A stretch of DNA of 64,000 bases, from NCBI GenBank assembly GCA_963668025.2, contig CAXXTH010000017.1, forward strand, positions 352,001 through 416,000, in the 5' to 3' direction. The DNA comes from Candidatus Hydrogenedentota bacterium (GTDB taxonomy: Bacteria > Hydrogenedentota > Hydrogenedentia > Hydrogenedentales > SLHB01). This document shows, one piece after another, positions 5,900 through 56,715 of the stretch. The notes under the pieces were generated by a model that was given only the letters and a program-made list of their open reading frames with translations, was not told the DNA's origin and made no database searches. Both the position numbers and the translations under genes were made by a program. Position 1 is the first letter of the stretch. Each line of letters starts with the position of its first letter.

Positions 5900-6022
5900 A
5901 TAAAAAAACCGCACCGTCTGAAGACAGTGCGGGACAGATCACAGTTGTGTATATCCGTCCGTGCTCCCAGTCTCGGCAGGCAGAGATTAAGGCCTATAGG
6001 CCGCCGGCTGTCTTCGACGTGA
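5900..6022 (-). promoter_or_regulatory. Ribosomal protein L10 leader (autoregulatory RNA) with attenuator hairpin
   Basis: Minus strand GTCGAAGACAGCCGGCGG...TTAA...CCTGCCGAGAC, followed by CCGCACTGTC-TTCA-GACGGTGCGG-TTTTTT before the rplJ RBS. Confidence 0.8.
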
Positions 6023-6048
6023 ACATCGGATGACCGATTTATGAGGAA

Positions 6049-36859: not shown

Positions 36860-38926
36860 TTAATGCGCCTCATCCGCGCCTACCTCGGCAGGTTCTTCGC
36901 TCCGCTTCTCGAAATCGAATTCCTCTGTCTTCGGGATTTGCTGTGGAATACGCACCTCGCATTTATCGCCGTCGCAATAGAGGTCCTGGGCCTCGTCCGT
37001 ATTGAGATCATAGAACTCGATAGGCTTCAGCCGCGCGATGGCATGCTGGTACATCTCCGCGCTGATTTCTTGATACGGGGCTTGGGCGTACTGGTGGTCG
37101 CTCAAGGGAAGAAAACTGACGGATTTCAATCGTGATTCGTACAGCTCGAGAATCTGCGGCAGATCACACGCCTCTTCGGGGCGGAAAGTCACGGTGACGC
37201 TCACCTGATTATCGGCCCAGTAATATTGCATCTGCGCCGCATTCTCGACTTGCTCCCAGATGGATACGTCGTTCTTCGAACGTTCGAAATTCATGGACTC
37301 GACTGGAAACGAGACCACCCATGTGTTGTCCCCGTAGACGGATTCCTCGATGTGGTAGCCCGCATTGCGCAATGGCTCGACGAGCGGGCTGGTTTTGTCA
37401 AGGCGGATGGCGCGCAGATAATAGCGGGAATGGGGGTAATGGATGCCCGGCGTCACGCCAGGGAGCAGCGAGACCGTGCCGCTGGGCTTTACGCTGGTCT
37501 TCTTGATGCTCTCGGGAATGCACAGCCACTGGGCGTAAATGCGGTCCAGATCGCAGATATATTGGTAGCCTTTATCGCACCACTCGAGATGGGCGCGCCG
37601 GCCATGCTTCTCGAAGGATTCGACAATGCCGGACTGCGACAATCCGATGCGACGGTTGCGCAGCATGATGGCGTTGGTGCGCTCGTTGTGCGTCGGAATG
37701 AGGGTCACTGTTTTGGCGTATAAATAGGCAAACTTGAGGGTGCGTTTATATTCATCGAAGCTTTCATGCAGCGACGGGAAGGTTTCAACGAGGTTGCAGA
37801 TCTCGTAGGATTCGAGGCTTTGTTCGGCGCAAGGATTTGTACCGGCGACTTTAACATCACGGTACGTAGGCCCGTCTTTCAAGCGGCCATACGCGCGCGC
37901 GTTTTCGAGCCAGAAGTAGCCGGGCTCGCCATTTTTGGCGGTTTGTTCGCCCAGCATCCGGTAATCCATGCCCATGGAGGCGGAAACGCTGTTGTTTGAA
38001 GCCCAGCGCCAAGCCATCAGTTTTTTACTGTTCAATTCCGGGTCTTTGAGTTTAAGGTACTCCGCATCGCCAGGATCGCCCAGGGCCAGTTCCGCCGTCC
38101 GGCGCACGCCTCCGGATACGACGCATTTCCCGATGACATTCATCAGGTCCGTGATATCCACGGAGCTGATGCGGTCGCCCGTGCGGGGCTGCAGAATGGC
38201 GTGGATATTCTCGATGCAGTCCATCAACGGCTTGGGGCCGGGGGCAATGCCGCCAAAAGTGCGGATGGGCGACCCGAGCGGGCGTATTTTCGAATAATCA
38301 ATGTGTAGCGGCAGCTTGTCCCGCCCGGCATAGGACTCGAGCACGCAACGGACCAGATCGACCCAGCCCTCTTTCGAGTCATCCACCACATGCGTGTAAT
38401 CGGCGGTCTTGGGCTCATGTATCAGCAATGCGCCCGCGCCTTTCGTATCGAACGCCACGCCCACGCCCAGCAGGGACATATCCATCAAAAAGCAAAATGG
38501 TTCGGAAAAACTAAAATCTATCTCCGCCGTGGACACAAAGGCGCAGTTATTTAAAGCAGCCGAGCCCCGCTCATAGATGTAGTCCGTGCCCATCATCCAA
38601 AGGCCACGGCCTGGGGGCAGAAATTTGAATTCCCACATGAGGCGGAACATTTCTTGGGCGGAACGCTGGGCCTTATGAGGGTTCCAAGGCAGCTTGAGGT
38701 TGCGGCAATGGTTGATCTGGATGGTGTAACATCCCTCGACGACCCGGCGCACGGTCTCCCAGTATTCCTCGGTGCGCCCGCCACTATCCGGCACGGCGCG
38801 GGCATAGGTGCGCTTGAAGGTCACATATCCCAGCGGGCCCCATTTAGGCTGGCCGCCTCGATAGCGTTCGATAAAATTGTCCGATAATTTAAAACGTTCT
38901 TTGGCTTCAAACAGCATTTCTTTCAC
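36860..38926 (-). CDS. nrdJ: Class II (adenosylcobalamin-dependent) ribonucleotide reductase, RTPR-like
   Basis: PPGRGLW, LNNC, GGVRRTA, NPCAEQ, CNL, KPSGT and a C-terminal CDGDKC. Confidence 0.93.
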   Translation of the reverse strand: MKEMLFEAKERFKLSDNFIERYRGGQPKWGPLGYVTFKRTYARAVPDSGGRTEEYWETVRRVVEGCYTIQINHCRNLKLPWNPHKAQRSAQEMFRLMWEFKFLPPGRGLWMMGTDYIYERGSAALNNCAFVSTAEIDFSFSEPFCFLMDMSLLGVGVAFDTKGAGALLIHEPKTADYTHVVDDSKEGWVDLVRCVLESYAGRDKLPLHIDYSKIRPLGSPIRTFGGIAPGPKPLMDCIENIHAILQPRTGDRISSVDITDLMNVIGKCVVSGGVRRTAELALGDPGDAEYLKLKDPELNSKKLMAWRWASNNSVSASMGMDYRMLGEQTAKNGEPGYFWLENARAYGRLKDGPTYRDVKVAGTNPCAEQSLESYEICNLVETFPSLHESFDEYKRTLKFAYLYAKTVTLIPTHNERTNAIMLRNRRIGLSQSGIVESFEKHGRRAHLEWCDKGYQYICDLDRIYAQWLCIPESIKKTSVKPSGTVSLLPGVTPGIHYPHSRYYLRAIRLDKTSPLVEPLRNAGYHIEESVYGDNTWVVSFPVESMNFERSKNDVSIWEQVENAAQMQYYWADNQVSVTVTFRPEEACDLPQILELYESRLKSVSFLPLSDHQYAQAPYQEISAEMYQHAIARLKPIEFYDLNTDEAQDLYCDGDKCEVRIPQQIPKTEEFDFEKRSEEPAEVGADEAH

Positions 38927-38972
38927 CTCATATTTCCTTCAAAGCGCCCCCGCTTAGCCTGCCCCAAGTCCC

Positions 38973-39755
38973 CTATACATTTCCATGAGGTGTTTTCACC
39001 CATGGCAGTCCATCCACGTACTCGGCTTCATAATCCCCAAACACATTTGGATACCGTTTGCGGACTATATCGAACACCTTGCCAAAGACAAGGCGGATCT
39101 CCTCTTCCGCGTGCGGATCCGTGCGTACCTCCAGAACATGGCGGAGCGTCCGAAAATTGCATGTCCAGCCTACGGATGTCGCCAGTCCGATGGGGGCCAT
39201 GCGCCGGAAGGCCGAGGTCAGCTTCTTCTTCCGGTCGAAAGCGCTCTCTTCATCGATTTGATATAACTCGGCCAGTTGCCGCTGTAGCTCCTCTAATTGC
39301 TCCATGGTGCGGACGAAAATCTCCATCGCCTCTTCGCTTTCCCGGATGTGGGTGGGCGCCCAGGCAGACAAAGAATCGAGGCGCACATATCGCAGCGATT
39401 CCTGGGAGATGGCCGTGCCGGCGCGGTGGCGCACCAGTTCGTGGGTGAATACGCGGCTTACATCCGCGAACACAAAGTTCACCGTGGCGTGCTCGAGCAC
39501 GCTGCCATGGCCAGAAGCAAGGATATTCGCCATATAGGGGGCATTGCCCTGCCGTACGCGGGTGACATTGGGATTAAGCCCCGGCTCGAAGGAGCGGTAG
39601 CATAAGCGCCCATAGAATTCGCATAGCCGTTCGCCATCGCTCGGCGCATCGGTATTCCATTCCGGCGCGCCGAGATGCTCGAGATAGGCGGTCAAGCCTT
39701 CTTCCACGACTTGAGTCTCACCGACTAAAAAAACCTTGGGTTCTATGAGTTTCAT
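38973..39755 (-). CDS. thyX: Flavin-dependent thymidylate synthase
   Basis: GRLCY, GHGSVLEH, THELVRHR...SQESLRY and HAEEEIR motifs. Confidence 0.95.
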   Translation of the reverse strand: MKLIEPKVFLVGETQVVEEGLTAYLEHLGAPEWNTDAPSDGERLCEFYGRLCYRSFEPGLNPNVTRVRQGNAPYMANILASGHGSVLEHATVNFVFADVSRVFTHELVRHRAGTAISQESLRYVRLDSLSAWAPTHIRESEEAMEIFVRTMEQLEELQRQLAELYQIDEESAFDRKKKLTSAFRRMAPIGLATSVGWTCNFRTLRHVLEVRTDPHAEEEIRLVFGKVFDIVRKRYPNVFGDYEAEYVDGLPWVKTPHGNV

Positions 39756-42950: not shown

Positions 42951-44852
42951 CTACTGCATCCGGGCCTGCACGCTTGGGAAGCGGTTCATGTCCGTGTGGG
43001 GCAGAAACAGGGACGCCATGTATTCGTCCATGTAGCCCGGCGTGTTGCTCAGATCCATATAGGTCATTCGGCGGGCGATGTCAAGCTGGCGTTTCCGGTA
43101 CTCTTGCGACACGGCCACCATGTAGGAGCCCATGAGCGAGGCGTTGCCGATGTATTGGAAGCGTTCCCGGGGGATGTCGGGCGCGAGGCCGAGGATGATG
43201 GTCTTCTCGAGATCGAGGAAACGGCCAAAACCGCCCGCGATATAAATTCGCGCCAGATCCTCGAAGCCGATGCCAATGTGCTGAAGCATAAGCGAGCAGG
43301 CGGAATAGATGGCCCCCTTGGCGCGCACGATGTTTTCGATGTCCATCTCGCTGATGGCGATGGCTTCGCCGTTGGCGCTTTCTTCGGCGGAAGCGATGAT
43401 ATACCGCGCCCGCTTGCCGTCGTTCTTGATGTACGGCGACGGGCGGTCGCGGTCGAGTTTTCCCGCGGGATTGAGCCATCCCGTGATGAACAGGTTCGCC
43501 AGCAGCTCGATCATGCCCGAGCCGCAGATGCCTTGGGGCGCTCCTCCGCCAATGGTGTGATATCGCGCCGCGCCGGTATCGGGGTCCACATCGACGCTCT
43601 CGATGGCCCCGTGTGCTGCGCGCATGCCACACTGGATGCCGCCACCTTCAAAGGCGGGGCCTGCGGAACAAGCGCAGCTCATCAGAAAATCGCTATTGCC
43701 CACCACGAGCTCGCCGTTTGTGCCGATGTCGATAAACAGGCTGATCTCCTCGGATTCGGCGGCGAGGTCGGTGCATAGGAGGCCCGCCGTGATGTCGCCT
43801 CCTACGTAGCTGCCATTGTTGGGCGAGAAACAAATCCAGGAATCGGGATTGATCGGCAGGCCCACTTCGGCTGCGGTGACATAGGGCACTTCGAGCACCG
43901 TGGGAGTGTACGGATCTAGCCGGATGTACTCTGGATCAAGCCCCAGAAGCAAATGGTTCATGGTGGTGTTGCCCGAGATGACGGCATTGGTGATCTCCTC
44001 GGGTTCAACGCCGTTCTCTTCGGCGGTTTTTGTGATGAGCGTATTGATGGTGTCCAAGACACGCATACGCAATTCTTCGAGGCGTTCGGGCCGTTTCGCA
44101 TAGTTGATGCGGCTGATGATATCGAGGCCGCACACCACTTGGCCGTTATACGCCGTGTGGGTGGACATGATCCGCGCCACGGTAAGGTTGATGAGCTGCA
44201 CCGCCACGGTCGTGGTGCCCACGTCCACGGCAATGGCGTAATGGCGCGTGGTCTGGTTGCCCGGCTCGATGCGGATGACGTAGAGCTTGTCATCCTCGCG
44301 GACAAGCGTCACCGTGACCGCGCCATCCTTGGCGCGAAGGCTGCCCGCCAAGGTGCGTAGCACGCGCAAGGAATACACCACCTCGTGGCGGCCCCATTGA
44401 AGCTGGATCGCGCGCGTCAGCCGGTCTAGATCCGACAACCCGTCTTCCGGCTGGGGCTGCGGCACGAGAAAGAGCCACTTGACCGCGAGGGGATCATACT
44501 CCCATTCGCGGGGCAGCAATTCGCGGCGGATGAGGTAGGTCTCGTCGCCGTCGGCGAATTGGCCGCCTTCGCGGCCCGAGGGGCGGGGCACTTCAACCGT
44601 GATGTCCGATGTGAGCAAATGGGTCTTGCAAGCCAGCACATAGCCGTCGGCAATCATGGTGGGAGGAAGTGCGCCCCGGCCTTCCGACTCGATCTTGCCT
44701 TGTGTGATGCGGACGATGCATTTGCCGCATGTGCCCTTGCCGCCACAGGGCGACTCGACTTCGACGCCCGCCTTGCGGGCCACATCGAGCAGTTCCGCGC
44801 CAGGCAAGGCCTCCGCGATGGTTCCACTAGGCTCGAATGTCACCTTTGGCAT
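42951..44852 (-). CDS. acsV: Corrinoid reductive activator (RACo/AcsV; 2Fe-2S plus ASKHA DUF4445)
   Basis: CGGKGTCGKC...LAC, DVGTTT, SGNTTM, YVGGD, DIGTNGE, GPAFEG, GICGSG and AGGFG motifs. Confidence 0.92.
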   Translation of the reverse strand: MPKVTFEPSGTIAEALPGAELLDVARKAGVEVESPCGGKGTCGKCIVRITQGKIESEGRGALPPTMIADGYVLACKTHLLTSDITVEVPRPSGREGGQFADGDETYLIRRELLPREWEYDPLAVKWLFLVPQPQPEDGLSDLDRLTRAIQLQWGRHEVVYSLRVLRTLAGSLRAKDGAVTVTLVREDDKLYVIRIEPGNQTTRHYAIAVDVGTTTVAVQLINLTVARIMSTHTAYNGQVVCGLDIISRINYAKRPERLEELRMRVLDTINTLITKTAEENGVEPEEITNAVISGNTTMNHLLLGLDPEYIRLDPYTPTVLEVPYVTAAEVGLPINPDSWICFSPNNGSYVGGDITAGLLCTDLAAESEEISLFIDIGTNGELVVGNSDFLMSCACSAGPAFEGGGIQCGMRAAHGAIESVDVDPDTGAARYHTIGGGAPQGICGSGMIELLANLFITGWLNPAGKLDRDRPSPYIKNDGKRARYIIASAEESANGEAIAISEMDIENIVRAKGAIYSACSLMLQHIGIGFEDLARIYIAGGFGRFLDLEKTIILGLAPDIPRERFQYIGNASLMGSYMVAVSQEYRKRQLDIARRMTYMDLSNTPGYMDEYMASLFLPHTDMNRFPSVQARMQ

Positions 44853-44884
44853 GGGGTGCTTCCTGGTTACAAAAGCAATCATTT

Positions 44885-45026
44885 TCTGGGGGACCCTTTC
44901 TTTCGCAGAAAGGGTCCCCCAGACCCCCCTCCCAAAGAACTCTCATTTGCTCCGCGAGCAACGCCTAATCAAAGGTTTTTGGAAAGGGGTTCGGGGAAAA
45001 CCTTTTTGCAAAAAGGTTTTCCCCGA
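44885..45026. repeat. Cruciform double-hairpin repeat between acsC and acsV
   Basis: TCTGGGGGACCCTTTC...GAAAGGGTCCCCCAGA and the perfect 36-bp palindrome TCGGGGAAAACCTTTTTGCAAAAAGGTTTTCCCCGA. Confidence 0.8.
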
Positions 45027-45065
45027 TCTTCGTATCCACAATATACCCGCATTCATCTTCCGAGA

Positions 45066-46412
45066 CTACGCCGCGAGCACGTTTTTTATGAAACTCTCGA
45101 GATCGCCCGCTTCTTGCGGCCCTACGATGATTTCCCAGCCGGGCATGGCTTCCTCGAGTTCACCCGAGATCTGCGCCACGTAGCCGGGAATGACGATTTT
45201 GCGGTTCTTGGTTTTCGATTCGAGCTCGAATTCTTTGGCGAACTTGCCGATCTTGTCGCCGCCAAATTTGCCCGCCGCCCAGGATGTCAGCACGCTCATG
45301 CCCTCACATTCGGGTATCAGCAGCCAGGCCGAGAGGCCCGCGTTTTCGATTTCGCCCGACACGATGAAGTAGGTGAGCGAGAAGTTGGTGGTGACGAATG
45401 TCGGGCTCGTATCCGTAGGCTCGCCGATGGCATAAATCTTCGGCTCGACTTGGATGGGCTTCTGCGGGTCGGTATAAATATTTTGTCGCAGCGCCAGCAG
45501 CGACACCATCACCGCCGGGTCGAATTCGGGCAGAATCACAATGCCGCCGTACTTGGTGATCTCGAGGCCCGCCTCGACGGCGTCATCCATGGCGTTGCCT
45601 GTGTTCACGTAGGCGAGGGACGGGTAACCGAGCGTCTTGAGGCCCGTCTTGAGCGCGCCGCGCCGCATGATGATATGGTTTTGCACGTGTTCGCAAAGGC
45701 TGTCCGCTCTCAATTCAAGCAGGATATCGCGAAATTCCGCCGCCATGCAGGTTTCGACCATGGCCGCGAGGGCGTTGAAATTGTCCGCCGCCAACGCCAG
45801 CACGGCCCCATTCGCCTTAGCCGCTTCACACAGCGGGCCCACGGTTTCGGGCGTGGCTGATGCAAGGATGGGCTTGCGGCCCTTGAGCGTTTCAGACGCC
45901 GCCATAAGCAGGCTGGAATCGTCCGTGCGCACCACGATTGCGCCGCCCCACAAGGCCGCCACGCGCTCGATGCAGGCCAGATAGGCGTCGCGCGAGCCGC
46001 TCGAGCAGGCCACGCTGATGGCGTTGAGGCGGAGCTGTTCGCCGACGCGGTCCAGCGTGTAATCGGCCACGGCCTTCACGCGCGCTTCGAGTTCCGCAAT
46101 GTCCATGGCGTCATCCACGGCCACGCCGATGCCCGTCTCGTGGACAAAGGTTTTTTCATGGCGGTATGCAACCGTTTCTCCGCCCACGGAGAAGGCCCGC
46201 TCCCCCGCGCCGATAACGATGGTGCGGATGGGCGGTTCAGCAGCCGCACCGAGGATGGCCTTGGCTTCCTCGGACGCATAAGGGCATTCGGATAACTCGG
46301 CTTTCTTCGCCGCGAGCTTCATGGCGAAGGCCAGGCACGTGTTCGAGCCGCATTCCTTGCAATTCGTTTTCGGGAGCAGTTTTTGTATCTGCAAGCCAGT
46401 CAAGGGGGCCAT
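45066..46412 (-). CDS. acsC: Corrinoid iron-sulfur protein large subunit (CdhE/gamma)
   Basis: LPKTNCKECGSNTCLAFA...CPY, IYTDPQKP, TTNFSLTY and GMSVLTSWAAGKF motifs. Confidence 0.96.
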   Translation of the reverse strand: MAPLTGLQIQKLLPKTNCKECGSNTCLAFAMKLAAKKAELSECPYASEEAKAILGAAAEPPIRTIVIGAGERAFSVGGETVAYRHEKTFVHETGIGVAVDDAMDIAELEARVKAVADYTLDRVGEQLRLNAISVACSSGSRDAYLACIERVAALWGGAIVVRTDDSSLLMAASETLKGRKPILASATPETVGPLCEAAKANGAVLALAADNFNALAAMVETCMAAEFRDILLELRADSLCEHVQNHIIMRRGALKTGLKTLGYPSLAYVNTGNAMDDAVEAGLEITKYGGIVILPEFDPAVMVSLLALRQNIYTDPQKPIQVEPKIYAIGEPTDTSPTFVTTNFSLTYFIVSGEIENAGLSAWLLIPECEGMSVLTSWAAGKFGGDKIGKFAKEFELESKTKNRKIVIPGYVAQISGELEEAMPGWEIIVGPQEAGDLESFIKNVLAA

Positions 46413-46434
46413 GGTGCATGATCTCCTGGCGCCG

Positions 46435-49400
46435 TTATTCGGGCCGGTTGTTGGCGGACAGCTTCTGTACGTTGCGCCGCAGGATTTCCAATGATTCGGG
46501 ATGGTGCAAGATGAGCAAGTCCGCGCCGCTGGTGAGCAGCGTCATAGCGGTCTGCACTTCCCACAACACCGCGCGTTTCTCGATAGCGCCCCAATTCGGG
46601 AACGACGACTCGAGCGCATGGCCTTCCTTGGCCTTCCAGGCCTCCTGGCCCACATGCCCGAACAAGGGGAAGGCCAGCGACGCATCGCCGCCGAATCCTG
46701 TTAGGCGGATGCGTTCCATGACCGAGAAGGTGTATTCGAGGCCGTAACCCAGTGCGCCCACCATGGGGTCCATGATAATGCGGTCGCGAGGCAGGTCCAT
46801 GTTACCGAGCAGGATATTGAGCTGTTTGGCGAGGTTCACGTCAATCGGGCTCTGCGCCACGACGCAATGGCCATAGGCCAGCGCCGCGCCCGCTATGGTG
46901 CGGTAATTGTCGCCTTCCACCCAATTGAGCAGGAGGCGCTCGCCCGCGCAACCCGAGGCGACTTTTTTCATCACCTCATTGGTGGAATCGAAGTGGCTAT
47001 GGCCGGTGATGATGAGCGGCACATCCACGGCGGCGAGGATATCCTTCACCAGCGCCAGGGCGTCATCGGGACTTTTGCCACCCTTTTCGGGATGCGTGCC
47101 TTCGAGGCGCACCGAGATGATCTCCGCACCGTATTGCTCGACGGCGGCCTTCGCCATCTCGGCGGGCTTGGCCGCGAGATCGCCCCAGACGCCCCGCAGC
47201 ACCGGCGACAGCTTCGGGCTAACGGTGTCGAACACTTCAAGCGCAAAGACCGGCGAATTCGGAATGGAGCCCTCGAAATAGTGGAACGGCAGGCAATTCT
47301 GGCCGCCAAGGGCCACCGTGCGGCCACGGGTGCCGCCATCGGCGGATGTCGCGCCCAGCACCACGGCCTGAATGGTCTCGCCGGGCGATTCGCTGGGCAG
47401 GGCGAAAGCCGACACTTCAGCCAGCTTCTCCGCCGCATAACGCGTGGGAGCTTTCACCTCAACCACTTCGATCACCGGTTTCACCGGCGCTTCCGCGATT
47501 GGAGAGAGTGGGAGCGTGGCAGGCGCGGGAGCCATTGGCGGGGCGGCAATGGCCATGCCCAGTGGCGCAATGCCTTGTAACACCCCCGCAATCGCGCCTA
47601 CCACGTCCACAAGCAGTTCTCTTTTTAGGTCAGGAGAGGGCTTCACTTCAAGTTCTTCTTTCAGAGAGGCCTTGATATCCTCCATGATCGATTTCCGCAG
47701 TTCCGGCACTAGCTCCGTCTTGAGCGTGTCTTTCAACTGCGCGGATACTGTATCTGTAATCTGCTTAAATAATGCTGACAATAGATCGCCAGCTCCGCCG
47801 TTGCTGCCCGGAATGTGGGCTGCCGCAGGCGGCGCCGGGGCTGGCGGCGTGGAAAGCGCGGCGGCCGATTCGGCGGGCTTGGCCTTTGGTGCGATGGCAA
47901 CGAATTTAGGCTCCGGTTTCGGGGCCGCCTTGGGCGCTGAGGCCTCTGCCTTGGCTTCGGGCGAGGCCATTTCGTAGACATCTTCCTTGCCTACCCACAT
48001 CGTCGCCATGTCTTCCATCGTGACGGCGGGATGGCCTACTTTTTCCATGTAGGCTTTGATTTCCTGTGGATCCGTGGCGATGGTTTCATCGGCGATCTTG
48101 CCCCACAAATCCGGGAGTTCCAAGGCTTTCGCGCGCGACTTAAAATCGTCCGCCAGGATATCCTTGAGTTCCTTCGGCATCCAGACGACGCGCGCAAGCC
48201 CGCCATCGGCGTAGAGGAACTTCGGGCTTGAGAGGAAGGCCTTGCCCACGCCCATGAAGCCGGGCGTCTGGACGCCGCCGCCCACCATGCCCGCGAGCGA
48301 ACTGAACGGCATGCCGATGGGCGTGTCGCCAGGGAATTCGCGATTGACGATCATGACGCCGTTGCACTCGGGCACATAGGCCACGATGCTCTCGAAACAG
48401 CCGCACGAGGTCATGGGGTTGTCCATGATGCTGTAGGCCGTGAAGCTCTTGATGGCCTTGTGCGAGTTTTTATACACGTATTCGTTGACGCCTTCCCATA
48501 TGCCGCGCTTCGGGTCAAGGCAGCGCCCCTTCTCGACGGGCTGGTTCGGGCCGGTCTCATCGATCTCGTGGGCAGCCTTGCCATCGAGCCAGTTGTACGC
48601 GCCGCACAGGCCGAGGCGTTCGGGCGTGATGATGCATACATGATCTGGCGCGAATGATTGGCACAGCAGGCAGCTATAAAATGTCTCGACGGATTCGTCG
48701 GTCATGGCCGCCAAGCGGTGGTTGCGCTCGATATACACCTTACGCGCATGGGCGAGGCGTCGCTCGACCTCTTCTTTTTCCGTCACCAGCGTGACCTTGA
48801 CCTTGTCCACGATGGCCGGATATTCATCCAGGAATTTGGCATGTAGAATCTCGCCATAGTGTTTCAGACGCAAACCTTTAGCGAAACCGCCCTTGCTGAC
48901 GCGCGTCCACACGATGTCGCGCTGGCCCATATGCCAAAGGCCTTCCGCGCCGTTCAGCAGATGGTGAATCTGGCGTTCGAGAATAGGCTCGAAATCGGAC
49001 TGCATCTTGCGGCCCGCCACTTCGACCCAAATGGCCAGCGGCAGCGCCGTGCCCTCGGGCACCTGGTCGATATCCGGGCCGATAATCTCGATCTCGCCGT
49101 CATTGATATCGTCCAGTTCGACCATGGTGGCGAATTCGAAGGCGGGCGTGATGTTGCCGCCGAATTCGGCATGCACGTCGGCCTTCCGGATGCGTTCGCC
49201 CTCGAAGGCGGGGCCGTAGGGCACGGGCACAGGCACATTTGCCACTTTAATTTTGCAGCCGCGCACCTCGAGGGAGCGTTCGACGATTCTATCAAGGGGC
49301 ACATTGCTCACCACGTGTTCGTAGGTGCAGACGCCCGTGGGCAGGATCTCGGGGATATCCGTGTCGGCGATGGTCGGGAAACCGTAATTGATCGCGCCCG

Positions 49401-50181
49401 CCGCCGCTGCGTATTTCTCCTGGTCCACCTCGCCCAGCGCCATGACAAAGGCGAAGATGCGGTTCTTGTTGTAGCGCAGGTTTCGCTCGAAGTCGCCGGG
49501 CTGCACGCCGCCGAACGATAGAGCGGCGCGGCTGGCGAAACCGAGGGCATAGATGGCCGCCGACACATCATGGCCGAAGGGCACGAGGCGCGTCTCCCAG
49601 CCCAACTGCACGCCTTCGGCGGCGAGCTGTTCTGCGAAGGTCACGCCATCGACCGCACCCGCCATGAAGACATACAGGTTCTTCTCCTGCAACTGCCGGG
49701 CGATCTTCACCGCCGTGGCGTTGTCCGGCGCGGCTCCCACCACGGCCGCGAAACCGGGCGCGGTGCCATCCACGAATTCGATGCCGCGTTCGCGCATGAT
49801 CACGTCGTTGGCCGCACCGAGCCAGATCCCATCGACGGGATTCGGGCCGATCAGATATTTGCACGCTTCGATGGCCTCGAAGGCAAACAGCGTAGCCACG
49901 CCCGCGTCGAGTGCGTCGCCCAGATAGGGCAGCCATACATTCTCGGATGGCGGCTCGGGCAGCAGGTTGTGGCAGTCTTGCATCACCTCGACGAGGTCGC
50001 TTAGTTTCTGCACTTTCCGGCCCGTAAACGAATAAATGACCGGAAGATAATAGGCCGTGCCGGGGAATCCCACGGGATGCTCGGCCCCCTTGGCTTCGAT
50101 AGTCCGCGCAAGCATGGCGTTGGCCCGCTCGACGGCTTCCTTGGCTCCTACGATGGCGTCGGTGCAAATGGCCTTAGACAT
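46435..50181 (-). CDS. acsB: Fused acetyl-CoA synthase (AcsB) plus CoFeSP small subunit (AcsD)
   Basis: About 730 N-terminal aa with A-cluster ligands (CLLCQSF, HVC, LCGAY, SCGCFE); Pro/Ala linker; C-terminal GGTRG...PFHYFEG...ALEVFD...SPIDVNLAKQLN...ALGYGLEY...MERIRL (AcsD). Confidence 0.93.
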   Translation of the reverse strand: MSKAICTDAIVGAKEAVERANAMLARTIEAKGAEHPVGFPGTAYYLPVIYSFTGRKVQKLSDLVEVMQDCHNLLPEPPSENVWLPYLGDALDAGVATLFAFEAIEACKYLIGPNPVDGIWLGAANDVIMRERGIEFVDGTAPGFAAVVGAAPDNATAVKIARQLQEKNLYVFMAGAVDGVTFAEQLAAEGVQLGWETRLVPFGHDVSAAIYALGFASRAALSFGGVQPGDFERNLRYNKNRIFAFVMALGEVDQEKYAAAAGAINYGFPTIADTDIPEILPTGVCTYEHVVSNVPLDRIVERSLEVRGCKIKVANVPVPVPYGPAFEGERIRKADVHAEFGGNITPAFEFATMVELDDINDGEIEIIGPDIDQVPEGTALPLAIWVEVAGRKMQSDFEPILERQIHHLLNGAEGLWHMGQRDIVWTRVSKGGFAKGLRLKHYGEILHAKFLDEYPAIVDKVKVTLVTEKEEVERRLAHARKVYIERNHRLAAMTDESVETFYSCLLCQSFAPDHVCIITPERLGLCGAYNWLDGKAAHEIDETGPNQPVEKGRCLDPKRGIWEGVNEYVYKNSHKAIKSFTAYSIMDNPMTSCGCFESIVAYVPECNGVMIVNREFPGDTPIGMPFSSLAGMVGGGVQTPGFMGVGKAFLSSPKFLYADGGLARVVWMPKELKDILADDFKSRAKALELPDLWGKIADETIATDPQEIKAYMEKVGHPAVTMEDMATMWVGKEDVYEMASPEAKAEASAPKAAPKPEPKFVAIAPKAKPAESAAALSTPPAPAPPAAAHIPGSNGGAGDLLSALFKQITDTVSAQLKDTLKTELVPELRKSIMEDIKASLKEELEVKPSPDLKRELLVDVVGAIAGVLQGIAPLGMAIAAPPMAPAPATLPLSPIAEAPVKPVIEVVEVKAPTRYAAEKLAEVSAFALPSESPGETIQAVVLGATSADGGTRGRTVALGGQNCLPFHYFEGSIPNSPVFALEVFDTVSPKLSPVLRGVWGDLAAKPAEMAKAAVEQYGAEIISVRLEGTHPEKGGKSPDDALALVKDILAAVDVPLIITGHSHFDSTNEVMKKVASGCAGERLLLNWVEGDNYRTIAGAALAYGHCVVAQSPIDVNLAKQLNILLGNMDLPRDRIIMDPMVGALGYGLEYTFSVMERIRLTGFGGDASLAFPLFGHVGQEAWKAKEGHALESSFPNWGAIEKRAVLWEVQTAMTLLTSGADLLILHHPESLEILRRNVQKLSANNRPE

Positions 50182-52129
50182 TGAGCGCTCTCCGGTCTTT
50201 CATGTCGAACAGTTTACGTTCCGCTTTCTTGTTGATCCCCAGGGCGTCGCGCTTCTTCTCGATATGGGCGCAGATCACCTCGATAGCCTTATGGACATCG
50301 GACTCGTAATGGAACTTGGCCCCCACTTCGGCCTCGAGGCCTTGCGTGAGGTATTCGGTGACATTCTTCGAGCCCATGGTGTGGAAAGGATGGCCCAGCA
50401 CCACATCCACGCCCGACGCCACGAAGTAATGGCCGATAGCCACGGCCTTTTCGCTCATCCACTCGGGGGCCGCGCCGATGGCGGGCACCTCGGAGAGGTC
50501 GTTGCCGAGTCCGCCTTCTTCAACGATGTACGTAGCGGCCATGAGAATACGGGAGTTGTCCACGCACGAACCCATATGCAGCACCGGCGGAATGCCCACC
50601 GCCTCGCACACTTCGCGCAGGCTGTCGCCCGCCATTTGAAGAGCCGTCTCGGGCGTGAGCAGCCCCGCTTTGCCGCAGGCCACCGCCGCGCAACCCGTCT
50701 GCAAGACGAGCACATTGCGCTTGATCAGCTCCTTGGCCAACGTGAGGATGTATTCATCCATCTTGCCGTGGCGCGCATTGGTGCAGCCCACGATGCCGCA
50801 CACGCCGCGAATGCGGCCCGTGATGATGGCGTCATTGAGCGGGCGGAAGCTCTTGCGGAATGTGCCGCCTAGGATGTTGAAAATCGTCTCCGTGCTGAAT
50901 CCAGCCACGAGCGGACTGCGGTGATCGGGGATGGCCACCTTTTTCGGATCCCGGTTCGGGAAATTATCAATGGCTTTCCAGAGAATCGCCTTGGCGGACG
51001 CCAGGCCGTCCTCGGGCTCGTAGTTCACCGGCTCCGCGCCGATATTCATGGCGATGGGGCTGGTGGTCAGAATCTTGGTGTGGTAGCACTTCGCCACTTC
51101 CGGCAGCGAGGCCATGCAGCACTGCACATCGGTGATCATGAGTTCGACGGCGCCCGTGATGATGGCGAGTTCCTGCTGAAGGAAATTACCCGCCACGGAT
51201 ACGCCGTGGCGCATGAGCACTTCGTTTGCCGTGCAGCAGATGCCCGCGAGGTTGATCCCCTCCGCGCCCACTTTCTTCGCGGCGGCCACCATCTCGGGGT
51301 CGTTCGCCGCCACCACCAGCATCTCCGTGAGCGCCGGTTCATGGCCATGCACGAGGACATTCACCATTTTTTCTTCGAGGACGCCCAAATTCGCCTTGGC
51401 CTTAACGGGCTTTGGCGTGCCGAACAGGATGTCGCTCACGGCAGTGGCGATCATTGAACCGCCCCAGCCATCGGCAAGGGACGTTTTGAGTGCGCCTCGA
51501 ATGATGTTTTTATAGTCATGGTCCACGCCGATATGGGTGCGGTGCAGGCATTCCACTACGGAGGCGTCCACGCCGCCCGGTGCGATTTTCATGTGGTCCC
51601 ACACGCTTTGGCGTGGCTTGGGCGCCAGTTCGAGGGTTTTCAGTTTGCCTTCCTGCAAGCGGAATTCATCCAGAAACAGCTCGGCCAGATTGCGCACGAC
51701 ATCAAGGGTGTCCACACCCGCTTCCTCGACGCCCCATGCCCGGGCGGCGGAGCGCAGCTTGCGCTCGTCGCTGATCTTGTAATCGCCGCCGTTGCCTTCG
51801 CCGACGCGCTTAAGCAACAGCACCAAGTGGCGGCCATGGTCCGAATGGGCCGCCGTGCCAGCCGCCACTTCACGGAGCAGATTGCGCGCCACGACGGTGT
51901 CCAGGGTCGCGCCGCATACGCCCGGCGTGAAGTCAGATATCTTGCAAGGCCCCATATGGCAAATGCGGCAGCACGTGCCTTCCGAGCCAAAGGTGCAGGG
52001 CTTACCTTGTTCATCCGCCCTCGAGAAAGCATCGTTCTCGACGCCGTCCGCATCGGCTTTCCTGAGCATTTCGATGCTTGCCTGATCAACGGCCAAGTCT
52101 TCGATGCGCCGCTCACGATCATCCGCCAT
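50174..52129 (-). CDS. cooS: Anaerobic Ni-CO dehydrogenase catalytic subunit (AcsA)
   Basis: CTFGSEGTCCRICHMGPC, HSDH, HGHEP, GICCT, DVQC, GCTN, TGC, GSCVDNSR and PEWMSEKA motifs. Confidence 0.97.
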   Translation of the reverse strand: MADDRERRIEDLAVDQASIEMLRKADADGVENDAFSRADEQGKPCTFGSEGTCCRICHMGPCKISDFTPGVCGATLDTVVARNLLREVAAGTAAHSDHGRHLVLLLKRVGEGNGGDYKISDERKLRSAARAWGVEEAGVDTLDVVRNLAELFLDEFRLQEGKLKTLELAPKPRQSVWDHMKIAPGGVDASVVECLHRTHIGVDHDYKNIIRGALKTSLADGWGGSMIATAVSDILFGTPKPVKAKANLGVLEEKMVNVLVHGHEPALTEMLVVAANDPEMVAAAKKVGAEGINLAGICCTANEVLMRHGVSVAGNFLQQELAIITGAVELMITDVQCCMASLPEVAKCYHTKILTTSPIAMNIGAEPVNYEPEDGLASAKAILWKAIDNFPNRDPKKVAIPDHRSPLVAGFSTETIFNILGGTFRKSFRPLNDAIITGRIRGVCGIVGCTNARHGKMDEYILTLAKELIKRNVLVLQTGCAAVACGKAGLLTPETALQMAGDSLREVCEAVGIPPVLHMGSCVDNSRILMAATYIVEEGGLGNDLSEVPAIGAAPEWMSEKAVAIGHYFVASGVDVVLGHPFHTMGSKNVTEYLTQGLEAEVGAKFHYESDVHKAIEVICAHIEKKRDALGINKKAERKLFDMKDRRALNV

Positions 52130-52161
52130 TATCTATCCTCTCCAGTTGGCTCGCGTGCAAT

Positions 52162-52512
52162 CTACTGATTGCCCTTAGGAGCAAAGGTCTTTTCTTCGGT
52201 CGTCCATTGCATAAACTCCACGACCGTTCCCGCGTCGTATATAAAAGCGGCCACCACGTTCTCCATGGCCTGGAACGGGCCAAGAATCACGTTCTTGCCT
52301 GAGATTTCCCGTTCCAAATCATCCGTCGTGAAGGCCAAGTGCGGCTGCATGCGCAACGGGCCCGTGACGGGCGAATCGGATTCATAGCGCAAATACTCGA
52401 TTCGATACGGATGATTGCCCGGCTCCGTCACGAACACCTTCGTCTCCGCCACGTAAATCTCGCCGTCGTGTTTTTCATCCGTCGGCAGTCCCAAATGATG
52501 AAACTCTCGCAT
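52162..52512 (-). CDS. Small VOC/glyoxalase-like protein
   Basis: FHHLG...IEYL...PHLAF...DDL...VEFM pattern; GGGAG RBS. Confidence 0.65.
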   Translation of the reverse strand: MREFHHLGLPTDEKHDGEIYVAETKVFVTEPGNHPYRIEYLRYESDSPVTGPLRMQPHLAFTTDDLEREISGKNVILGPFQAMENVVAAFIYDAGTVVEFMQWTTEEKTFAPKGNQ

Positions 52513-52529
52513 GGCTTTCTCTCCCTTAG

Positions 52530-52577
52530 GTACCATGGCCGTCCCAGCCATGCGCATGGGCGGGACGCCCATGCTAC
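52530..52577. repeat. REP doublet within the acs operon
   Basis: GTACCATGGCCGTCCCAGCCATG-CG-CATGGGCGGGACGCCCATGCTAC; the right unit is identical to 13569-13591. Confidence 0.8.
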
Positions 52578-52616
52578 GGTATTCAAGATCATGAGCCGCT
52601 CTAGCAAAAAATGGCG

Positions 52617-53378
52617 TCAAGCCGCCATGTATCCGAGCATGTGTTCCGCCGCTTGGTATGCGGCGCTATTCTTGGATAGCTCGAACACAGGCGCGCCGGT
52701 GGCGTCTTGCCTGGCCACCTCGGGGTCTTCCGGCAGGCCGCCAAGCACCTTCACGGGAGTGCCCGCGAACAGCTCTTCGGCGCGGGCCAGGCAGGCCTCA
52801 TCTCGAAGCCGGTTAATCACGACACCCATGTGACCCGCCTTCATTTCCATCTCGAGGGCGAGGTCATATAGCCGCCGCGCCGTCAAAATGCCGCGCGCGG
52901 AAGGGTCGGCCACGAATACCAGCCAATCCGTTTGCTGCACGGTGCGGCGGCTCAGATTTTCAAGTCCTGCTTCGTTATCTATCACCACGGCGGGGTACTG
53001 GCCAGATAATTTCGATAGCACGCCCCGCAACACATTATTCGCGTAACAGTAACAGCCGGGGCCTTCCGAGCGGCCCATGGCGATCAGGTCGAACCCTTGC
53101 GCCTCGACCAGCGACTCCTGGATCTTCATGTCCAGCAAGTCCTGTTTGCTGACACCCCCCGCAATGCCCGCTTGCGCGATGGCCTTGGCCTCCTCGCGCA
53201 CGCCGCCCACGGTGTTCGACACCTGCACGCCCAGCAGCGCATCGAGGCACATGTTCGGATCGGCGTCCACGGCCAATACGGGGCCTTTGCCCCATTCGCC
53301 CAATAGGCGCACCGCTAACGCCGCCAGCGTGGTTTTCCCTACGCCGCCCTTGCCTGTCACCGCCAGCGTCCAGCTCAT
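52617..53378 (-). CDS. cooC: CooC/AcsF nickel-insertion ATPase
   Basis: GKGGVGKT, DADPN, GCYC and DNEAGLENLSR motifs. Confidence 0.93.
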   Translation of the reverse strand: MSWTLAVTGKGGVGKTTLAALAVRLLGEWGKGPVLAVDADPNMCLDALLGVQVSNTVGGVREEAKAIAQAGIAGGVSKQDLLDMKIQESLVEAQGFDLIAMGRSEGPGCYCYANNVLRGVLSKLSGQYPAVVIDNEAGLENLSRRTVQQTDWLVFVADPSARGILTARRLYDLALEMEMKAGHMGVVINRLRDEACLARAEELFAGTPVKVLGGLPEDPEVARQDATGAPVFELSKNSAAYQAAEHMLGYMAA

Positions 53379-54289
53379 CCCAAGATCTTCTTCATGGTTT
53401 CAGCGACGGCTTTAATATGCGCGGGCGAAGAGCCACAGCAACCGCCAATGAATTTCGCACCAGCCTTCAACAGCACCGGAACGGCATGCTCATATACATC
53501 AGGCGTGGCCTTGAACACTGTCTTGCCGTTTTCATCCACCATGGGTTTGCCCGCGTTGCCTTTCACCCAGATGGGCACATCATCGCCGCATTGGGCGAAC
53601 AACTCGGCGATATGGGCGAAAGTCTCGATGCCCGCCCCGCAGTTCGCGCCCACGAAGCTCGCGCCCATGGACTTCGCCAGTTCATAGGTCTGGAGGATGC
53701 TGACGCCCATCATGGTGAATTCATTGTTTTCACCCGAATCGAAGGTCATCGACACGCCCACCGGGAGTTCCGGCGCGCCGCGCAGGCAGCCGCGCAATGC
53801 CGCCGCCACTTCCACCAGATCGCTCTGCGTCTCGACGACAATCGCATCAGCCCCGCCATCGGCGAAAGCCTTGGCTTGTTCCGCGGCGGACGCCTCGACC
53901 TCTTCCTCGGACACTTCGCCCATCATGACGATCTTGCCGCAGGGACCGAGCGAGCCGAATACATAGGCTTTGCCCAATGCCGCTTTCTTCGAGATCTCCG
54001 CACCGGCTTTGGTCAGTTCATACGCCCGCTCCGCGATGCCGTGCTTGGCGAGTACGATGTGGTTGCTGTTGAAGGTATTGGTCAGGATGACCTGCGAGCC
54101 CGCGTCCACATAGCCCTTGGCCACTTGGAATACCTTGTCCGGCTCGTCCACATTCCACGTATCACACATCTGGCCCGGTTTCGCGCCGAGTTTCGCCATT
54201 TCGGTGCCCCAAGCGCCGTCCGTGCATAACGGGGGGAGGTCTTTGAAGTTTTCTTTGGTCAGTTTCTTCGTCGCATCAAACTGCATCAT
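53375..54289 (-). CDS. Stand-alone homocysteine S-methyltransferase domain (MetH N-terminal module)
   Basis: DGAWGT, AGSQVILTNTF, GSLGP, ETQSD, and the Zn ligands GANCG and GGCCG. Confidence 0.9.
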   Translation of the reverse strand: MMQFDATKKLTKENFKDLPPLCTDGAWGTEMAKLGAKPGQMCDTWNVDEPDKVFQVAKGYVDAGSQVILTNTFNSNHIVLAKHGIAERAYELTKAGAEISKKAALGKAYVFGSLGPCGKIVMMGEVSEEEVEASAAEQAKAFADGGADAIVVETQSDLVEVAAALRGCLRGAPELPVGVSMTFDSGENNEFTMMGVSILQTYELAKSMGASFVGANCGAGIETFAHIAELFAQCGDDVPIWVKGNAGKPMVDENGKTVFKATPDVYEHAVPVLLKAGAKFIGGCCGSSPAHIKAVAETMKKILG

Positions 54290-54318
54290 ATGCCTCGCTT
54301 TCTTATGGGCTCCCGCCG

Positions 54319-55386
54319 TTAAAATCCGTACTTGCTCTTCAGCAGTTGGCTCGTCGCGCCGAGTTTCTGGAACACCTGCTCCGCGTCCGCCACTTCCATC
54401 GAGCCCGTGCCGCACGACGGCGTGATAAAGGCCTGTTCCAGAATCACTTGCTTGTCGATGCCCGCCTTCTGCGCTAGATTGTCTGCAAGCGTCTCAAACC
54501 TCGCCGCCAAGCCTTCCGGACTCTGTTCACGGATAGCAGGACTTGTCGGTACTACGCCCCAGGCCAGCGCGTTATGGTTGTCCATAAGATGGCGCTTCAT
54601 AGGCTCGGGATACAGGGCCACGGTTTCACCATAGTCAAATGCATCGAAGTTCAGGATATCGACACCCGCGTCCACGAGGATGGACCACTCGGTGTTGCCG
54701 CAGCAGTGGATGCCCGCGAATGCGCCTTCCAGGTGGACCGCCTCGATCACTTCGTTCAACCGCGCCACCACGTCATCGCGTTGCACGGACACGTAGGTCG
54801 AACTGCCGAAGGCCGACAAGATGGGCTCGTCAATGAAGCAGATGATATTTTCCGCATAGGGTTTGAACTTCTGGATCTGCCAGCGACATTTCATGGCCAG
54901 GGCCTTCACCACGACATCCAGGAACTCTTCGTTGTAATAAATGGCGCGCTTGTTCTCGTCCACGATGGTCAGTGCAAAACTGATGGGGCCGGTGGTTTGG
55001 CATTTGATGTACGGCAGCTTGGCCCCCAGCGATTTCACTTTCGCCTCGAGGGCGGGAATGCCCGCGCTGAACGCCGGGCTGATGGCCCCCGCCGAGCAGT
55101 CGTTCTCTTCTTCCGCCAGCATGTAGCCTTCATAAAACGCCGCCAGCTCTTCCGAGTAATCGCCCGAGGTGTCGATGTACATGCGCGACTTCGCCTCGTC
55201 GATTACGACGCGCGGGACGCCCTCGGAATACTGGATCTCCATCTGCTCGTGCAAGCCCAGCTTGGGCAATTGCGGCCAGATGGGGGCTGTGGGGATGCTG
55301 CTGAAGATCAGCTCGATGGCCTTCGCGGGGTCCGCATAAGGCAGCGAACCAATCGCCGTGGCTGTGCATTTCGCCTTGATGTCCAT
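54319..55386 (-). CDS. Core MetE-like (MesB-type) methionine synthase
   Basis: TAIGSLP, WPQLP, TGPIS, IDEP, GIHCC, WGVVPT and TPSCG motifs; no MetE N-terminal half. Confidence 0.8.
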   Translation of the reverse strand: MDIKAKCTATAIGSLPYADPAKAIELIFSSIPTAPIWPQLPKLGLHEQMEIQYSEGVPRVVIDEAKSRMYIDTSGDYSEELAAFYEGYMLAEEENDCSAGAISPAFSAGIPALEAKVKSLGAKLPYIKCQTTGPISFALTIVDENKRAIYYNEEFLDVVVKALAMKCRWQIQKFKPYAENIICFIDEPILSAFGSSTYVSVQRDDVVARLNEVIEAVHLEGAFAGIHCCGNTEWSILVDAGVDILNFDAFDYGETVALYPEPMKRHLMDNHNALAWGVVPTSPAIREQSPEGLAARFETLADNLAQKAGIDKQVILEQAFITPSCGTGSMEVADAEQVFQKLGATSQLLKSKYGF

Positions 55387-55455
55387 AGTTTGCTCTCCTT
55401 ACTGCTTTGCGTTTCAGCAGGGCGTCTATTATCCGAAATAGGCCCCGGGGCCCCA

Positions 55456-56259
55456 TTATACCAGCTTGGCTTCACTTCCAATGCGCGCTTTAGCGCTCTC
55501 CCACAACTCCTCAAATACGCCTCTTAGCCGTTCATCGGCGATATCCACCAGCGGTGCGCTGTCGCGGTCCGCCCGGCGAATCGTTTCGTCATACGGCAGC
55601 CAGCCCAGCACATCCTCGCCCGCGCACGCTTGCGTGATGAACGCATGGTCTTCCGGCGACGCGATTTTATTGGCGATGACCGCCACGCGCTGGACGCCGA
55701 TCTCCGCCGCCATGCGCCGCACCGCCGCTGCTGTTTCGACCGAACGCGCGCCGGGCTCCACCACCACCACCATGAGGTCCACGCCCTTGGCCGTCGCCCG
55801 GCCCAAATGCTCCAGGCCCGCTTCGAAATCAATAATGACGCAATCGTCTTTATACAGAATCACGTCCGTCATCAACGCCCGCAGCATCACGCTCTCGGGG
55901 CACGCGCACCCCGAGCCGCCGCTCTCGACCGCTCCCAACACCAGCAGATGAATGCCCCGGAATGAAGCCGATTCCTGTTCGGCGATATCCGACACATGGG
56001 GATTGAGTTTGAAAATTTGGCCGTATTGCTTGACCTTCGCGCCCGTGCGCTCCTCGATAAGGGCGCGCCGCTCCGAGAGGGGGATGATCGCGTTACGGCC
56101 TTCCAGAGGCATGCCGAGGGCCTCCGCCAGGTTCGCATCCGGATCAGCGTCCACCGCCAGCACGCGCAACCCTTCGGCAGCCGCCAAATGGGCGAACATC
56201 GCCGCGATAGTGGACTTGCCCACGCCGCCTTTGCCGCTGACCGCGATCTTGAATCCCAT
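55456..56259 (-). CDS. cooC: CooC nickel-insertion ATPase (second paralog)
   Basis: GKGGVGKS, DADPDANL, GCACPE and DFEAGLEHLGR motifs. Confidence 0.93.
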   Translation of the reverse strand: MGFKIAVSGKGGVGKSTIAAMFAHLAAAEGLRVLAVDADPDANLAEALGMPLEGRNAIIPLSERRALIEERTGAKVKQYGQIFKLNPHVSDIAEQESASFRGIHLLVLGAVESGGSGCACPESVMLRALMTDVILYKDDCVIIDFEAGLEHLGRATAKGVDLMVVVVEPGARSVETAAAVRRMAAEIGVQRVAVIANKIASPEDHAFITQACAGEDVLGWLPYDETIRRADRDSAPLVDIADERLRGVFEELWESAKARIGSEAKLV

Positions 56260-56355: not shown

Positions 56356-56436
56356 ACATATTAATTTTTGATTCCGTATTACTGGCTCGCCCTGATTTCT
56401 AGGGCTCTATCCACTGAGATCGTTGTGAGAATCAGA

Positions 56437-56609
56437 TTTTCACCACGGGGGCACGGGGAACACAGGGGAGGTGTTCTGTAGTTATTTTTCCATTGAAGCG
56501 ATGTCTCGGATATATTTAGAGGCATGAATAAAGCATAACTATTGAGCGTATTATTTTAAGCGACTGCATTTTAAGCCGCCCCGTGTTCCCCGTGCCCCCG
56601 TGGTGAAAA
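56437..56609. repeat. Periodic palindromic element with a 27-bp perfect stem
   Basis: TTTTCACCACGGGGGCACGGGGAACAC ... GTGTTCCCCGTGCCCCCGTGGTGAAAA around an AT-rich loop of ~110 nt. Confidence 0.9.
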
Positions 56610-56715
56610 AACCTTGTTATACATCCCGTTTACGTGCGGCTTGCCCTCGCGCGGTTCATCGGGTAATGTGATGGGGCCATGTTAAAGAATAACGGCTCAT
56701 CAAAGGAGAACATCA

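Follow-up and report, generated by a model that had tools for sequence, protein, structure and literature searches.

A CODH/ACS operon without acsE encodes a MesB-like methionine synthase and is a candidate folate-independent route for methyl groups from CoFeSP to homocysteine

What does a carbon monoxide dehydrogenase/acetyl-CoA synthase (CODH/ACS) exchange methyl groups with when its operon carries no gene for AcsE, the methyltransferase acting between methyltetrahydrofolate and the corrinoid iron-sulfur protein (CoFeSP), and encodes instead two enzymes of the homocysteine methyltransferase type? This question is raised by a nine-gene operon in a stretch of 64,000 nucleotides (nt) (hereafter, the window; C17:352001-416000) from a Hydrogenedentota genome of 6.15 Mb in 24 contigs, which is 93.75% complete. 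The two enzymes are a MesB-like core methionine synthase (P0001) and a stand-alone homocysteine S-methyltransferase domain (P0002). The answer that we favor, with a probability of roughly 55%, is that the operon is a self-contained and horizontally spread module that passes a methyl group from CoFeSP to homocysteine independently of folate, with the MesB-type synthase replacing AcsE, and that the source lineage has added to it a second, MetH-type homocysteine-binding module, i.e., P0002. Deobald 2020 and Price 2021 have already put the underlying idea into print. The literature that we searched gave no description of an AcsE-less bacterial module, of an acsB-acsD fusion, of alternation with AcsE, or of a frequent second PF02574 enzyme; the S1 Table of Price 2021, which lies outside that search, may list members.

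Family assignment of the open reading frames (ORFs) of the window with Pfam and NCBIfam profiles confirmed the gene run that the first-pass annotation, made from the DNA letters, had described. Nine close-packed ORFs (intergenic gaps of -8 to 183 nt) occupy the minus strand from 42951 to 56259, in the order cooC1, MetE-like gene, PF02574 homocysteine methyltransferase gene, cooC2, a small ORF, cooS, acsB::acsD, acsC, and acsV. The first gene, cooC1 (55456-56259), encodes a MinD/CooC-type (CbiA/MinD) Ni-insertion ATPase (PF01656 CbiA, 71 bits) and is followed by the genes of P0001 (54319-55386; 355 aa) and P0002 (53375-54289); the reading frame of the latter is open up to a GTG at 54415, and its likely start is the ATG at 54289, giving 304 aa. 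Downstream lie cooC2 (52617-53378), an acsF-type Ni-insertion ATPase gene that is conserved in related loci (PF01656, 52.6 bits), the small ORF, and cooS (50174-52129), encoding the catalytic subunit of Ni-CODH (PF03063, 550 bits; TIGR01702, 632 bits). The next gene, acsB::acsD (46435-50181), encodes a fusion protein of 1,248 aa, in which ACS (NF040764, 1051 bits over residues 11-725) and the small subunit of CoFeSP (delta-subunit models aligning from residues 833/936 to 1245) are joined by a linker of ~200 aa (residues ~726-935; window 46990-47620) that is Ala/Pro-rich, contains one amphipathic helix, and is probably disordered. The last two genes are acsC (45066-46412), for the large, corrinoid-binding subunit of CoFeSP (NF003195, 508 bits; PDB 2h9a_A, 368 bits), and acsV (42951-44882), for a RACo-type reductive activator of CoFeSP with Fer2, RACo_linker, Raco_middle, and RACo_C_ter domains (NF040756, 677 bits, under its cut-off of 800). 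The operon encodes the set that interconverts acetyl-CoA with Co-methyl and CO2 (AcsB, CoFeSP, CooS, two Ni-insertion ATPases, and the reductive activator), and the only methyl partners encoded with this set are thiol methyltransferases.

No acsE, metF, folD, or fhs occurs in the window, as had been claimed from the outset, and a search of the whole genome also found no acsE. More specifically, PF00809 matched just folP (C9) and MetH (C6), and AcsE queries taken from four related classical operons matched no more of the genome than the pterin module of MetH and drew no match from 80 related loci. A complete methyl branch elsewhere in the genome would speak against a self-contained module; what we found is part of one, in that metF (C17:638797), fhs (C17:813520), and folD (C10:54457) are all present outside the window whereas acsE is absent. 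A full-length MetH (1,214 aa) is encoded elsewhere as well, so the operon is not needed for methionine. The sole ACS and the sole CoFeSP of the genome are those of the operon. Given MetH and the folate genes, the analogy that had been drawn with Dehalococcoides fails: unlike Dehalococcoides, which, in the parts of the published accounts cited here, has no metF, acsE, metH/metE, or CODH, this host has CODH (cooS), MetF, Fhs, and MetH, and the lack of acsE is all that the two have in common.

The identity of P0001 emerged from fold and motifs. Its AlphaFold2 model (pLDDT 75.8, pTM 0.83) points to a single barrel of the MetE C-terminal type from which the folate-binding domain at the N-terminus is missing, and a Foldseek search with this model returned MetE chains at the top (1xpg_A, E 3.8e-8, with the catalytic half aligned), followed by UROD and MtaA. 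In an alignment of 18 members, S14, D186-E187-P188, H227-C228-C229, D248, and C325 are invariant, and the spacing of the putative ligands H/C/D/C (+2, +21, +98) equals that of the core-MetE zinc site H215/C217/D236/C312 (Deobald 2020, PMC7005905, section 5). A profile built from 131 representatives of the superfamily aligned S14, D186, and C325 with S433, D599, and C726 of E. coli MetE, respectively, by motif matches that are individually weak but collinear, and these three residues are among the homocysteine and Zn residues of MetE named in the cited part of Price 2021 (PMC7857596). Judging from these alignments, P0001 has kept the zinc ligands His-x-Cys, Asp (where MetE has Glu), and a distal Cys, as well as the homocysteine-binding Ser and Asp. 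Conventional sequence comparison contributed less: hhalign of the 18-sequence profile against E. coli MetE gave a probability of 0.66, which is not significant; neither the single sequence nor the 18-sequence profile retrieved anything useful from the PDB; the lone NCBIfam match was a weak one (18.9 bits) to the archaeal methionine synthase model NF002119; and PF01717 matched no protein in the source genome and left the MetE-like gene unmatched in all 50 module-bearing genomes that we surveyed. The initial label "core-MetE" is thus less firmly grounded than the first-pass annotation implied, its support being fold, motifs, and the weak NF002119 hit.

We file P0001 as MesB-like. The published MesB threshold is ≥130 bits against DET0516 (173 in profiling) (Price 2021); our proxy for that score is a 343-aa protein of the Methanomassiliicoccales, a group that according to the cited section of the same paper has MesB only, to which P0001 is 35% identical along its entire length (234 bits). 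Among the P0001 relatives retrieved, whose cluster names are mostly "hypothetical," we sought an exact match to the length and ligand positions of DET0516 and found none. The Dehalococcoides mccartyi protein (MesB/core-MetE; cbdbA481, i.e., DET0516; Deobald 2020; Price 2021) is among the closest known systems: both are single MetE-type barrels of ~345-355 aa without a folate-binding half, with an H-x-C...D...C zinc site of equal spacing and with the homocysteine-binding Ser and Asp kept. Moreover, the passages of Price 2021 cited here report MesB solely from genomes with AcsC and AcsD and predict CoFeSP as its donor, and in this operon P0001 is encoded alongside AcsC and AcsD, the two subunits of CoFeSP. 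The genomic setting differs, since the D. mccartyi gene lies with S-adenosylmethionine (SAM) synthetase and S-adenosylhomocysteine hydrolase genes in the cited descriptions, whereas the present gene is part of the CODH/ACS operon, where it is found between two cooC genes. In some methanogens, mesB-acsC-acsD operons cluster mesB with the CoFeSP genes, which the cited part of Price 2021 (Fig 3B) takes as a direct functional link; unlike those operons, the present module is bacterial, occurs in many phyla, includes cooS, two cooC genes, acsV, and a fused acsB-acsD, and often has a second, PF02574 enzyme. The co-folding of AcsC with P0001 gave a predicted complex that scored 0.41, versus 0.01 for the best of three controls, with 100% contact agreement between runs and a partner pLDDT of ≥88.

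The arrangement is supported as a conserved module and is not an accident of the source genome. At least 558 of 593 candidate stretches from species genomes encode a P0001 relative. The module is thereby represented in no fewer than 558 species genomes, which belong to more than ten phyla. Among 8,000 candidates scored, >4,470 were relatives at E ≤ 0.001, the best of them with 62-78% identity. For neighborhood counts we kept 80 loci with a P0001 homologue and chose subsets by the flank length available, namely, 61 loci with both flanks, 54 with ≥6 kb downstream, and 49 with ≥8.5 kb downstream. These 80 loci span Planctomycetota, Hydrogenedentota, Verrucomicrobiota, Lentisphaerae/Victivallales, Kiritimatiellota, Spirochaetota, Acidobacteriota, Bacillota, Bacteroidales, KSB1, and others. 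A cooC gene adjoins the MesB-like gene in 79 of the 80; cooS and acsB follow in 51 and 50 of the 54, respectively, and acsC in 45 of the 49. Of the 50 complete acsB frames in related loci, 46 exceed 1,100 aa, the length by which we recognized a fusion to acsD. Beyond the module, flanking genes recur in at most 7 loci, which is the number with an AraC/PocR regulator, and further recurrent flanking "clusters" were rejected as antisense shadow ORFs. In the source family, just 2 of 24 relatives carry the module, a patchy distribution that fits horizontal spread. In a genome of the same family (G164:C125:26980-27904; loci L108/L109), the MesB-like gene is in two pieces separated by an in-frame TAG, and the acsB frame is just 846 aa; this may reflect decay or an assembly error.

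The second methyltransferase, P0002, is matched by PF02574 over its whole length (191.9 bits), and its best NCBIfam matches, PRK08645 (209) and PRK07534 (184), are both under cut-off. Its identity to the N-terminal domains of E. coli MetH and of the MetH encoded in the source genome is 25-28%, and its Cys217, Cys284, and Cys285 align with C247/C310/C311 of E. coli MetH, which we take to be the three Zn ligands of that enzyme. The zinc and homocysteine sites are thus intact in both P0001 and P0002, in support of the first-pass interpretation. Copies in the position of P0002 with 60-75% identity occur in 9 of the 80 loci (L007, L010, L012-L016, L019). Among the 61 loci with both flanks, a PF02574 gene lies upstream of the MesB-like gene in 27 (36-48% identity to P0002) and downstream in 5, and 29 have none. 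A partnership of P0002 with separately encoded B12 and pterin modules of the MetH type, which had been named as a competing possibility, found no counterpart in the source genome as far as pterin is concerned, in that no stand-alone pterin module is present. The single small B12 protein of that genome lies on contig C10 among URO-D-type genes: at C10:581950-586031 (L110:3951-8032), three genes of the URO-D family (MtaA/MtvB-like) surround a small B12-binding protein and form a corrinoid methyltransferase system.

In function, the described protein nearest to P0002 is MtgE, a stand-alone PF02574 protein that the cited part of PMC12478193 describes as module 3 of a split MetH that is partnered by a separate corrinoid protein. 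P0002 resembles the split MetH/MtgE of Phaeobacter and Ruegeria (Price 2018, as cited; PMC12478193) in being a stand-alone Zn homocysteine domain that would draw its methyl group from a separately encoded corrinoid protein. It differs in that neither a pterin module nor a MetH-type B12 protein adjoins it in the window, the sole corrinoid protein of the operon being CoFeSP. This precedent bears on an explanation in which both homocysteine methyltransferases bypass CoFeSP and use free methylcobamide, S-methylmethionine/SAM, or another corrinoid protein, leaving CODH/ACS as an independent unit for CO and acetyl-CoA metabolism. Besides MtgE, such an explanation could appeal to the best NCBIfam matches of P0002, which are of the YitJ and BHMT types (if under cut-off), and to the separate small B12 protein in the source genome. 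We consider it very unlikely, because 79 of 80 loci, spread over more than ten phyla, have the MesB-like gene (62-78% identity) in a fixed place between two cooC genes, and because CoFeSP is the one corrinoid protein that the module conserves; the predicted AcsC-P0001 complex adds weak support on the same side.

Some loci do carry additional corrinoid genes. In L056, L068, L070, and L073, a B12 protein lies upstream of the PF02574 gene, accompanied by a RACo-like activase in L056, L068, and L073. In some loci of the Verrucomicrobiota type (L073:4557-8571; L056:3990-4062), a small B12-binding protein, a RACo-like activase that lacks Fer2, and an AraC/PocR regulator precede the module, adjoined by a TonB receptor/ABC uptake cluster that an AdoCbl-II riboswitch precedes. 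Two AdoCbl-II riboswitch matches were assigned to neighboring TonB-receptor genes on the opposite strand and rejected as elements of the module.

The distribution of AcsE within the phylum supports its replacement by the MesB-type synthase. Among 135 species genomes of Hydrogenedentota, acsB occurs in 13. The five of these with a P0001 homologue (the source genome G000, G009, G024, G125, and G164) have folP and MetH as their only pterin proteins, whereas each of the eight without one has at least one short pterin-binding ORF; in four of the eight (G012, G033, G091, and G092) this ORF is located in the acs cluster, and its score against the AcsE model NF005719 (cut-off, 259) is 246-270 bits. 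The search that came up without acsE in the source genome did detect AcsE in these four classical operons. AcsB of the AcsE-bearing classical operons in the phylum is unfused (726-758 aa) and 52-59% identical to the AcsB part of the fusion. The MesB-like gene and AcsE are, within Hydrogenedentota, an either/or pair. We extended the survey to 50 module-bearing genomes from across the phyla, sorting their pterin-binding matches into classes ourselves. These genomes are mostly metagenome-assembled and of unstated completeness, so that a lone absence is weak evidence and a pattern over many genomes is stronger. In 33 of the 50, we found nothing beyond folP-like and MetH-like pterin matches, and the complete 8.6-Mb chromosome of G061 carries the module without fhs or an AcsE-like ORF. 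Overall, fhs is present in 25 of the 50, metF in 47, and a long MetH-like ORF in 38, and full-length MetE was found in none. Two genomes have frames of ~820 aa with an MTHFR match and a weak pterin-binding match (G082:C161:617-2659, adjoining fhs, and G084:C78:17372-19312); these may be fused MetF-methyltransferases. In a separate context, acsE went undetected in 78% of gut Oscillospirales genomes with CODH/ACS, for which the cited passage offers no explanation (PMC11338639).

The same alternation also fits an explanation in which the MesB-like enzyme would stand in for AcsE in the opposite sense, i.e., run backwards, with methionine/homocysteine replacing tetrahydrofolate as the soluble methyl carrier of the acetyl-CoA pathway. 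In such a scheme, MetH or the PF02574 module, served by other corrinoid systems, would load methionine, which P0001 would then discharge onto Co(I)-CoFeSP to feed acetyl-CoA synthesis. The adjacency of two distinct homocysteine/methionine-binding enzymes is in keeping with this, as are the small B12 protein and RACo-like activase adjoining the PF02574 gene in some loci, and the source genome offers a corrinoid protein with three URO-D-type methyltransferases and no stand-alone pterin-type MT2. Methyl transfer from methylthiols to a corrinoid is, in addition, known from MtsA of Methanosarcina. The demethylation of a thioether by Co(I), however, is uphill by an estimated ~20-30 kJ/mol and thermodynamically unattractive; AcsE is easily gained through gene transfer and is in use in 8 genomes of the phylum; and our literature search gave no experimental precedent for methyl donation from methionine to a corrinoid protein. 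We regard methionine as a methyl source for acetyl-CoA synthesis as improbable, to be entertained at long odds. Were it true, hundreds of bacterial species now scored as "Wood-Ljungdahl positive" would have a folate-independent methyl branch.

The construction of CoFeSP bears on another explanation, in which the operon is a genuine Wood-Ljungdahl module whose archaeal-like CoFeSP exchanges methyl groups with a pterin carrier unaided, AcsE being dispensable and the MesB-like enzyme serving a methionine side branch. Archaeal CoFeSP transfers the methyl group by itself according to the ACDS preprint, which also describes the N-terminus of archaeal CdhD as disordered. Here the AcsD part is preceded by the ~200-aa Ala/Pro-rich stretch with its amphipathic helix, and fhs, folD, and metF are present in the source genome. 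The alignment to NF003375, the long delta-subunit model, begins at residue 833, and the linker resembles the disordered N-terminus of archaeal CdhD. The barrel itself tells otherwise: the top PDB match of the AcsD part is the small subunit of Moorella CoFeSP (4djd_D, 303 bits), and AcsC too is closest to the AcsE-dependent CoFeSP of Moorella/Carboxydothermus (368 bits), in searches in which no archaeal chain came up for comparison. The possibility that the AcsD part has an archaeal barrel was rejected, the closest PDB chains being bacterial. Furthermore, just half of the module-bearing genomes surveyed have fhs, and an unaided CoFeSP would leave both the fixed MesB-like gene and its alternation with AcsE unexplained. 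We judge this explanation unlikely. Set against the Moorella-type CODH/ACS (acsA-E with cooC/acsF and acsV), the module has the counterparts CooS, AcsB, AcsC, AcsD, CooC, and AcsV, but it lacks AcsE, fuses AcsB to AcsD through a linker that is probably disordered, and includes a MesB-like gene.

Under the transfer of methyl groups from CoFeSP to homocysteine that we favor, the steps would be as follows. AcsV, the RACo-type activator, would hold the corrinoid of CoFeSP, formed by AcsC and the ACS-tethered AcsD part, as Co(I); ACS would swap the methyl group between acetyl-CoA and this corrinoid; and CooS would interconvert CO and CO2. P0001, and probably also P0002, would then transfer the methyl group from CH3-Co(III)FeSP to a zinc-activated homocysteine thiolate, forming methionine. 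Summed, these steps would amount to acetyl-CoA + homocysteine → methionine + CO2 + CoA + reduced ferredoxin, and the route would run alongside the ordinary MetF/MetH route, not instead of it. Methionine is taken here as the sink and product, not the source, because the formation of a thioether from a methyl-corrinoid is downhill by an estimated ~20-30 kJ/mol. The cleavage direction that the first-pass annotation had supposed for ACS is not supported by our analysis. Taken together with the results above, the observation made in that annotation is confirmed and its interpretation is partly supported.

Several points weigh against this explanation. (i) That MesB-type synthases take their methyl group from CoFeSP had been put forward as established, and it is a published prediction: in the cited part of Deobald 2020 (PMC7005905), free methylcob(III)alamin is the only methyl donor shown so far for core-MetE, in vitro. 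The cited part of Price 2021 (PMC7857596) presents CoFeSP as the MesB donor as a prediction and calls for biochemical tests; it adds that distant MesB-like proteins occurring alongside other methionine synthases "might have another function." (ii) P0001 has no Pfam match at E ≤ 10, PF01717 (Meth_synt_2) included, and in this it is unlike MesB. (iii) The predicted AcsC-P0001 complex is weak support for a CoFeSP link: the score mark it passes is reached by 58 of 80 solved complexes and by 2 of 110 mismatched pairs, and passing scores of ≤0.60, the range in which it falls, were obtained by just 7 of the 80 solved complexes plus both of the passing mismatches. (iv) The supply of methionine alone is a poor argument for retaining a metal-hungry operon of 13 kb, because the source genome has MetH, metF, fhs, and folD and most of the 50 carriers surveyed have metF (47) and a MetH-like ORF (38). 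(v) The second homocysteine methyltransferase is not essential to the module, being absent from 29 of 61 loci. (vi) The exclusion of AcsE is not absolute outside the phylum, since 9 of the 50 carriers have a short AcsE/MT2-like ORF elsewhere and 8 are ambiguous. (vii) SAM, methionine, and B12 riboswitches, sought upstream of the operon and of 14 related loci, were not found.

The module matters for how genomes are read. CODH/ACS genes are often taken as acetogenesis or CO2 fixation in genome surveys, and such an assignment may be wrong for the carriers, i.e., at least 558 species genomes, because the module comes without AcsE and half of the sampled genomes are without Fhs. It also raises the question of whether these bacteria move methyl groups from acetyl-CoA to methionine or the other way. 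As one operon encodes all partners, it offers a clean system in which to test the use of the CoFeSP methyl group by a core methionine synthase.

The remaining gene of the operon, the small ORF between cooC2 and cooS (52162-52512; 116 aa from ATG), is a lineage-specific insertion outside the conserved module: it has no counterpart in the 80 related loci, and a 29%-identical paralogue lies at C10:214773. Its initial label, "small VOC," retains the backing of language-model neighbors in clusters named "putative VOC" (score, 0.97), a lead only, and no Pfam family matched it. Upstream of cooC1, a 450-nt gap contains a long inverted repeat (window 56434-56612; arms of ~27 nt, ~110 nt apart), at which a MIR398 match was dismissed as spurious, and a scan for promoters and terminators yielded counts no different from chance expectation. 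The operon is flanked by unrelated housekeeping genes, namely, those for PriA, RtcB, an FGE-sulfatase, PIG-L, an esterase, ThyX, and a class II ribonucleotide reductase. Farther off, a ribosomal protein L10 leader at window 5894-6035 is barely at its gathering score (44.6 versus 44 bits). The class II ribonucleotide reductase, which is B12-dependent, and ThyX (window 36860-39755) lie a few kilobases past the end of acsV and place another B12-dependent function nearby.

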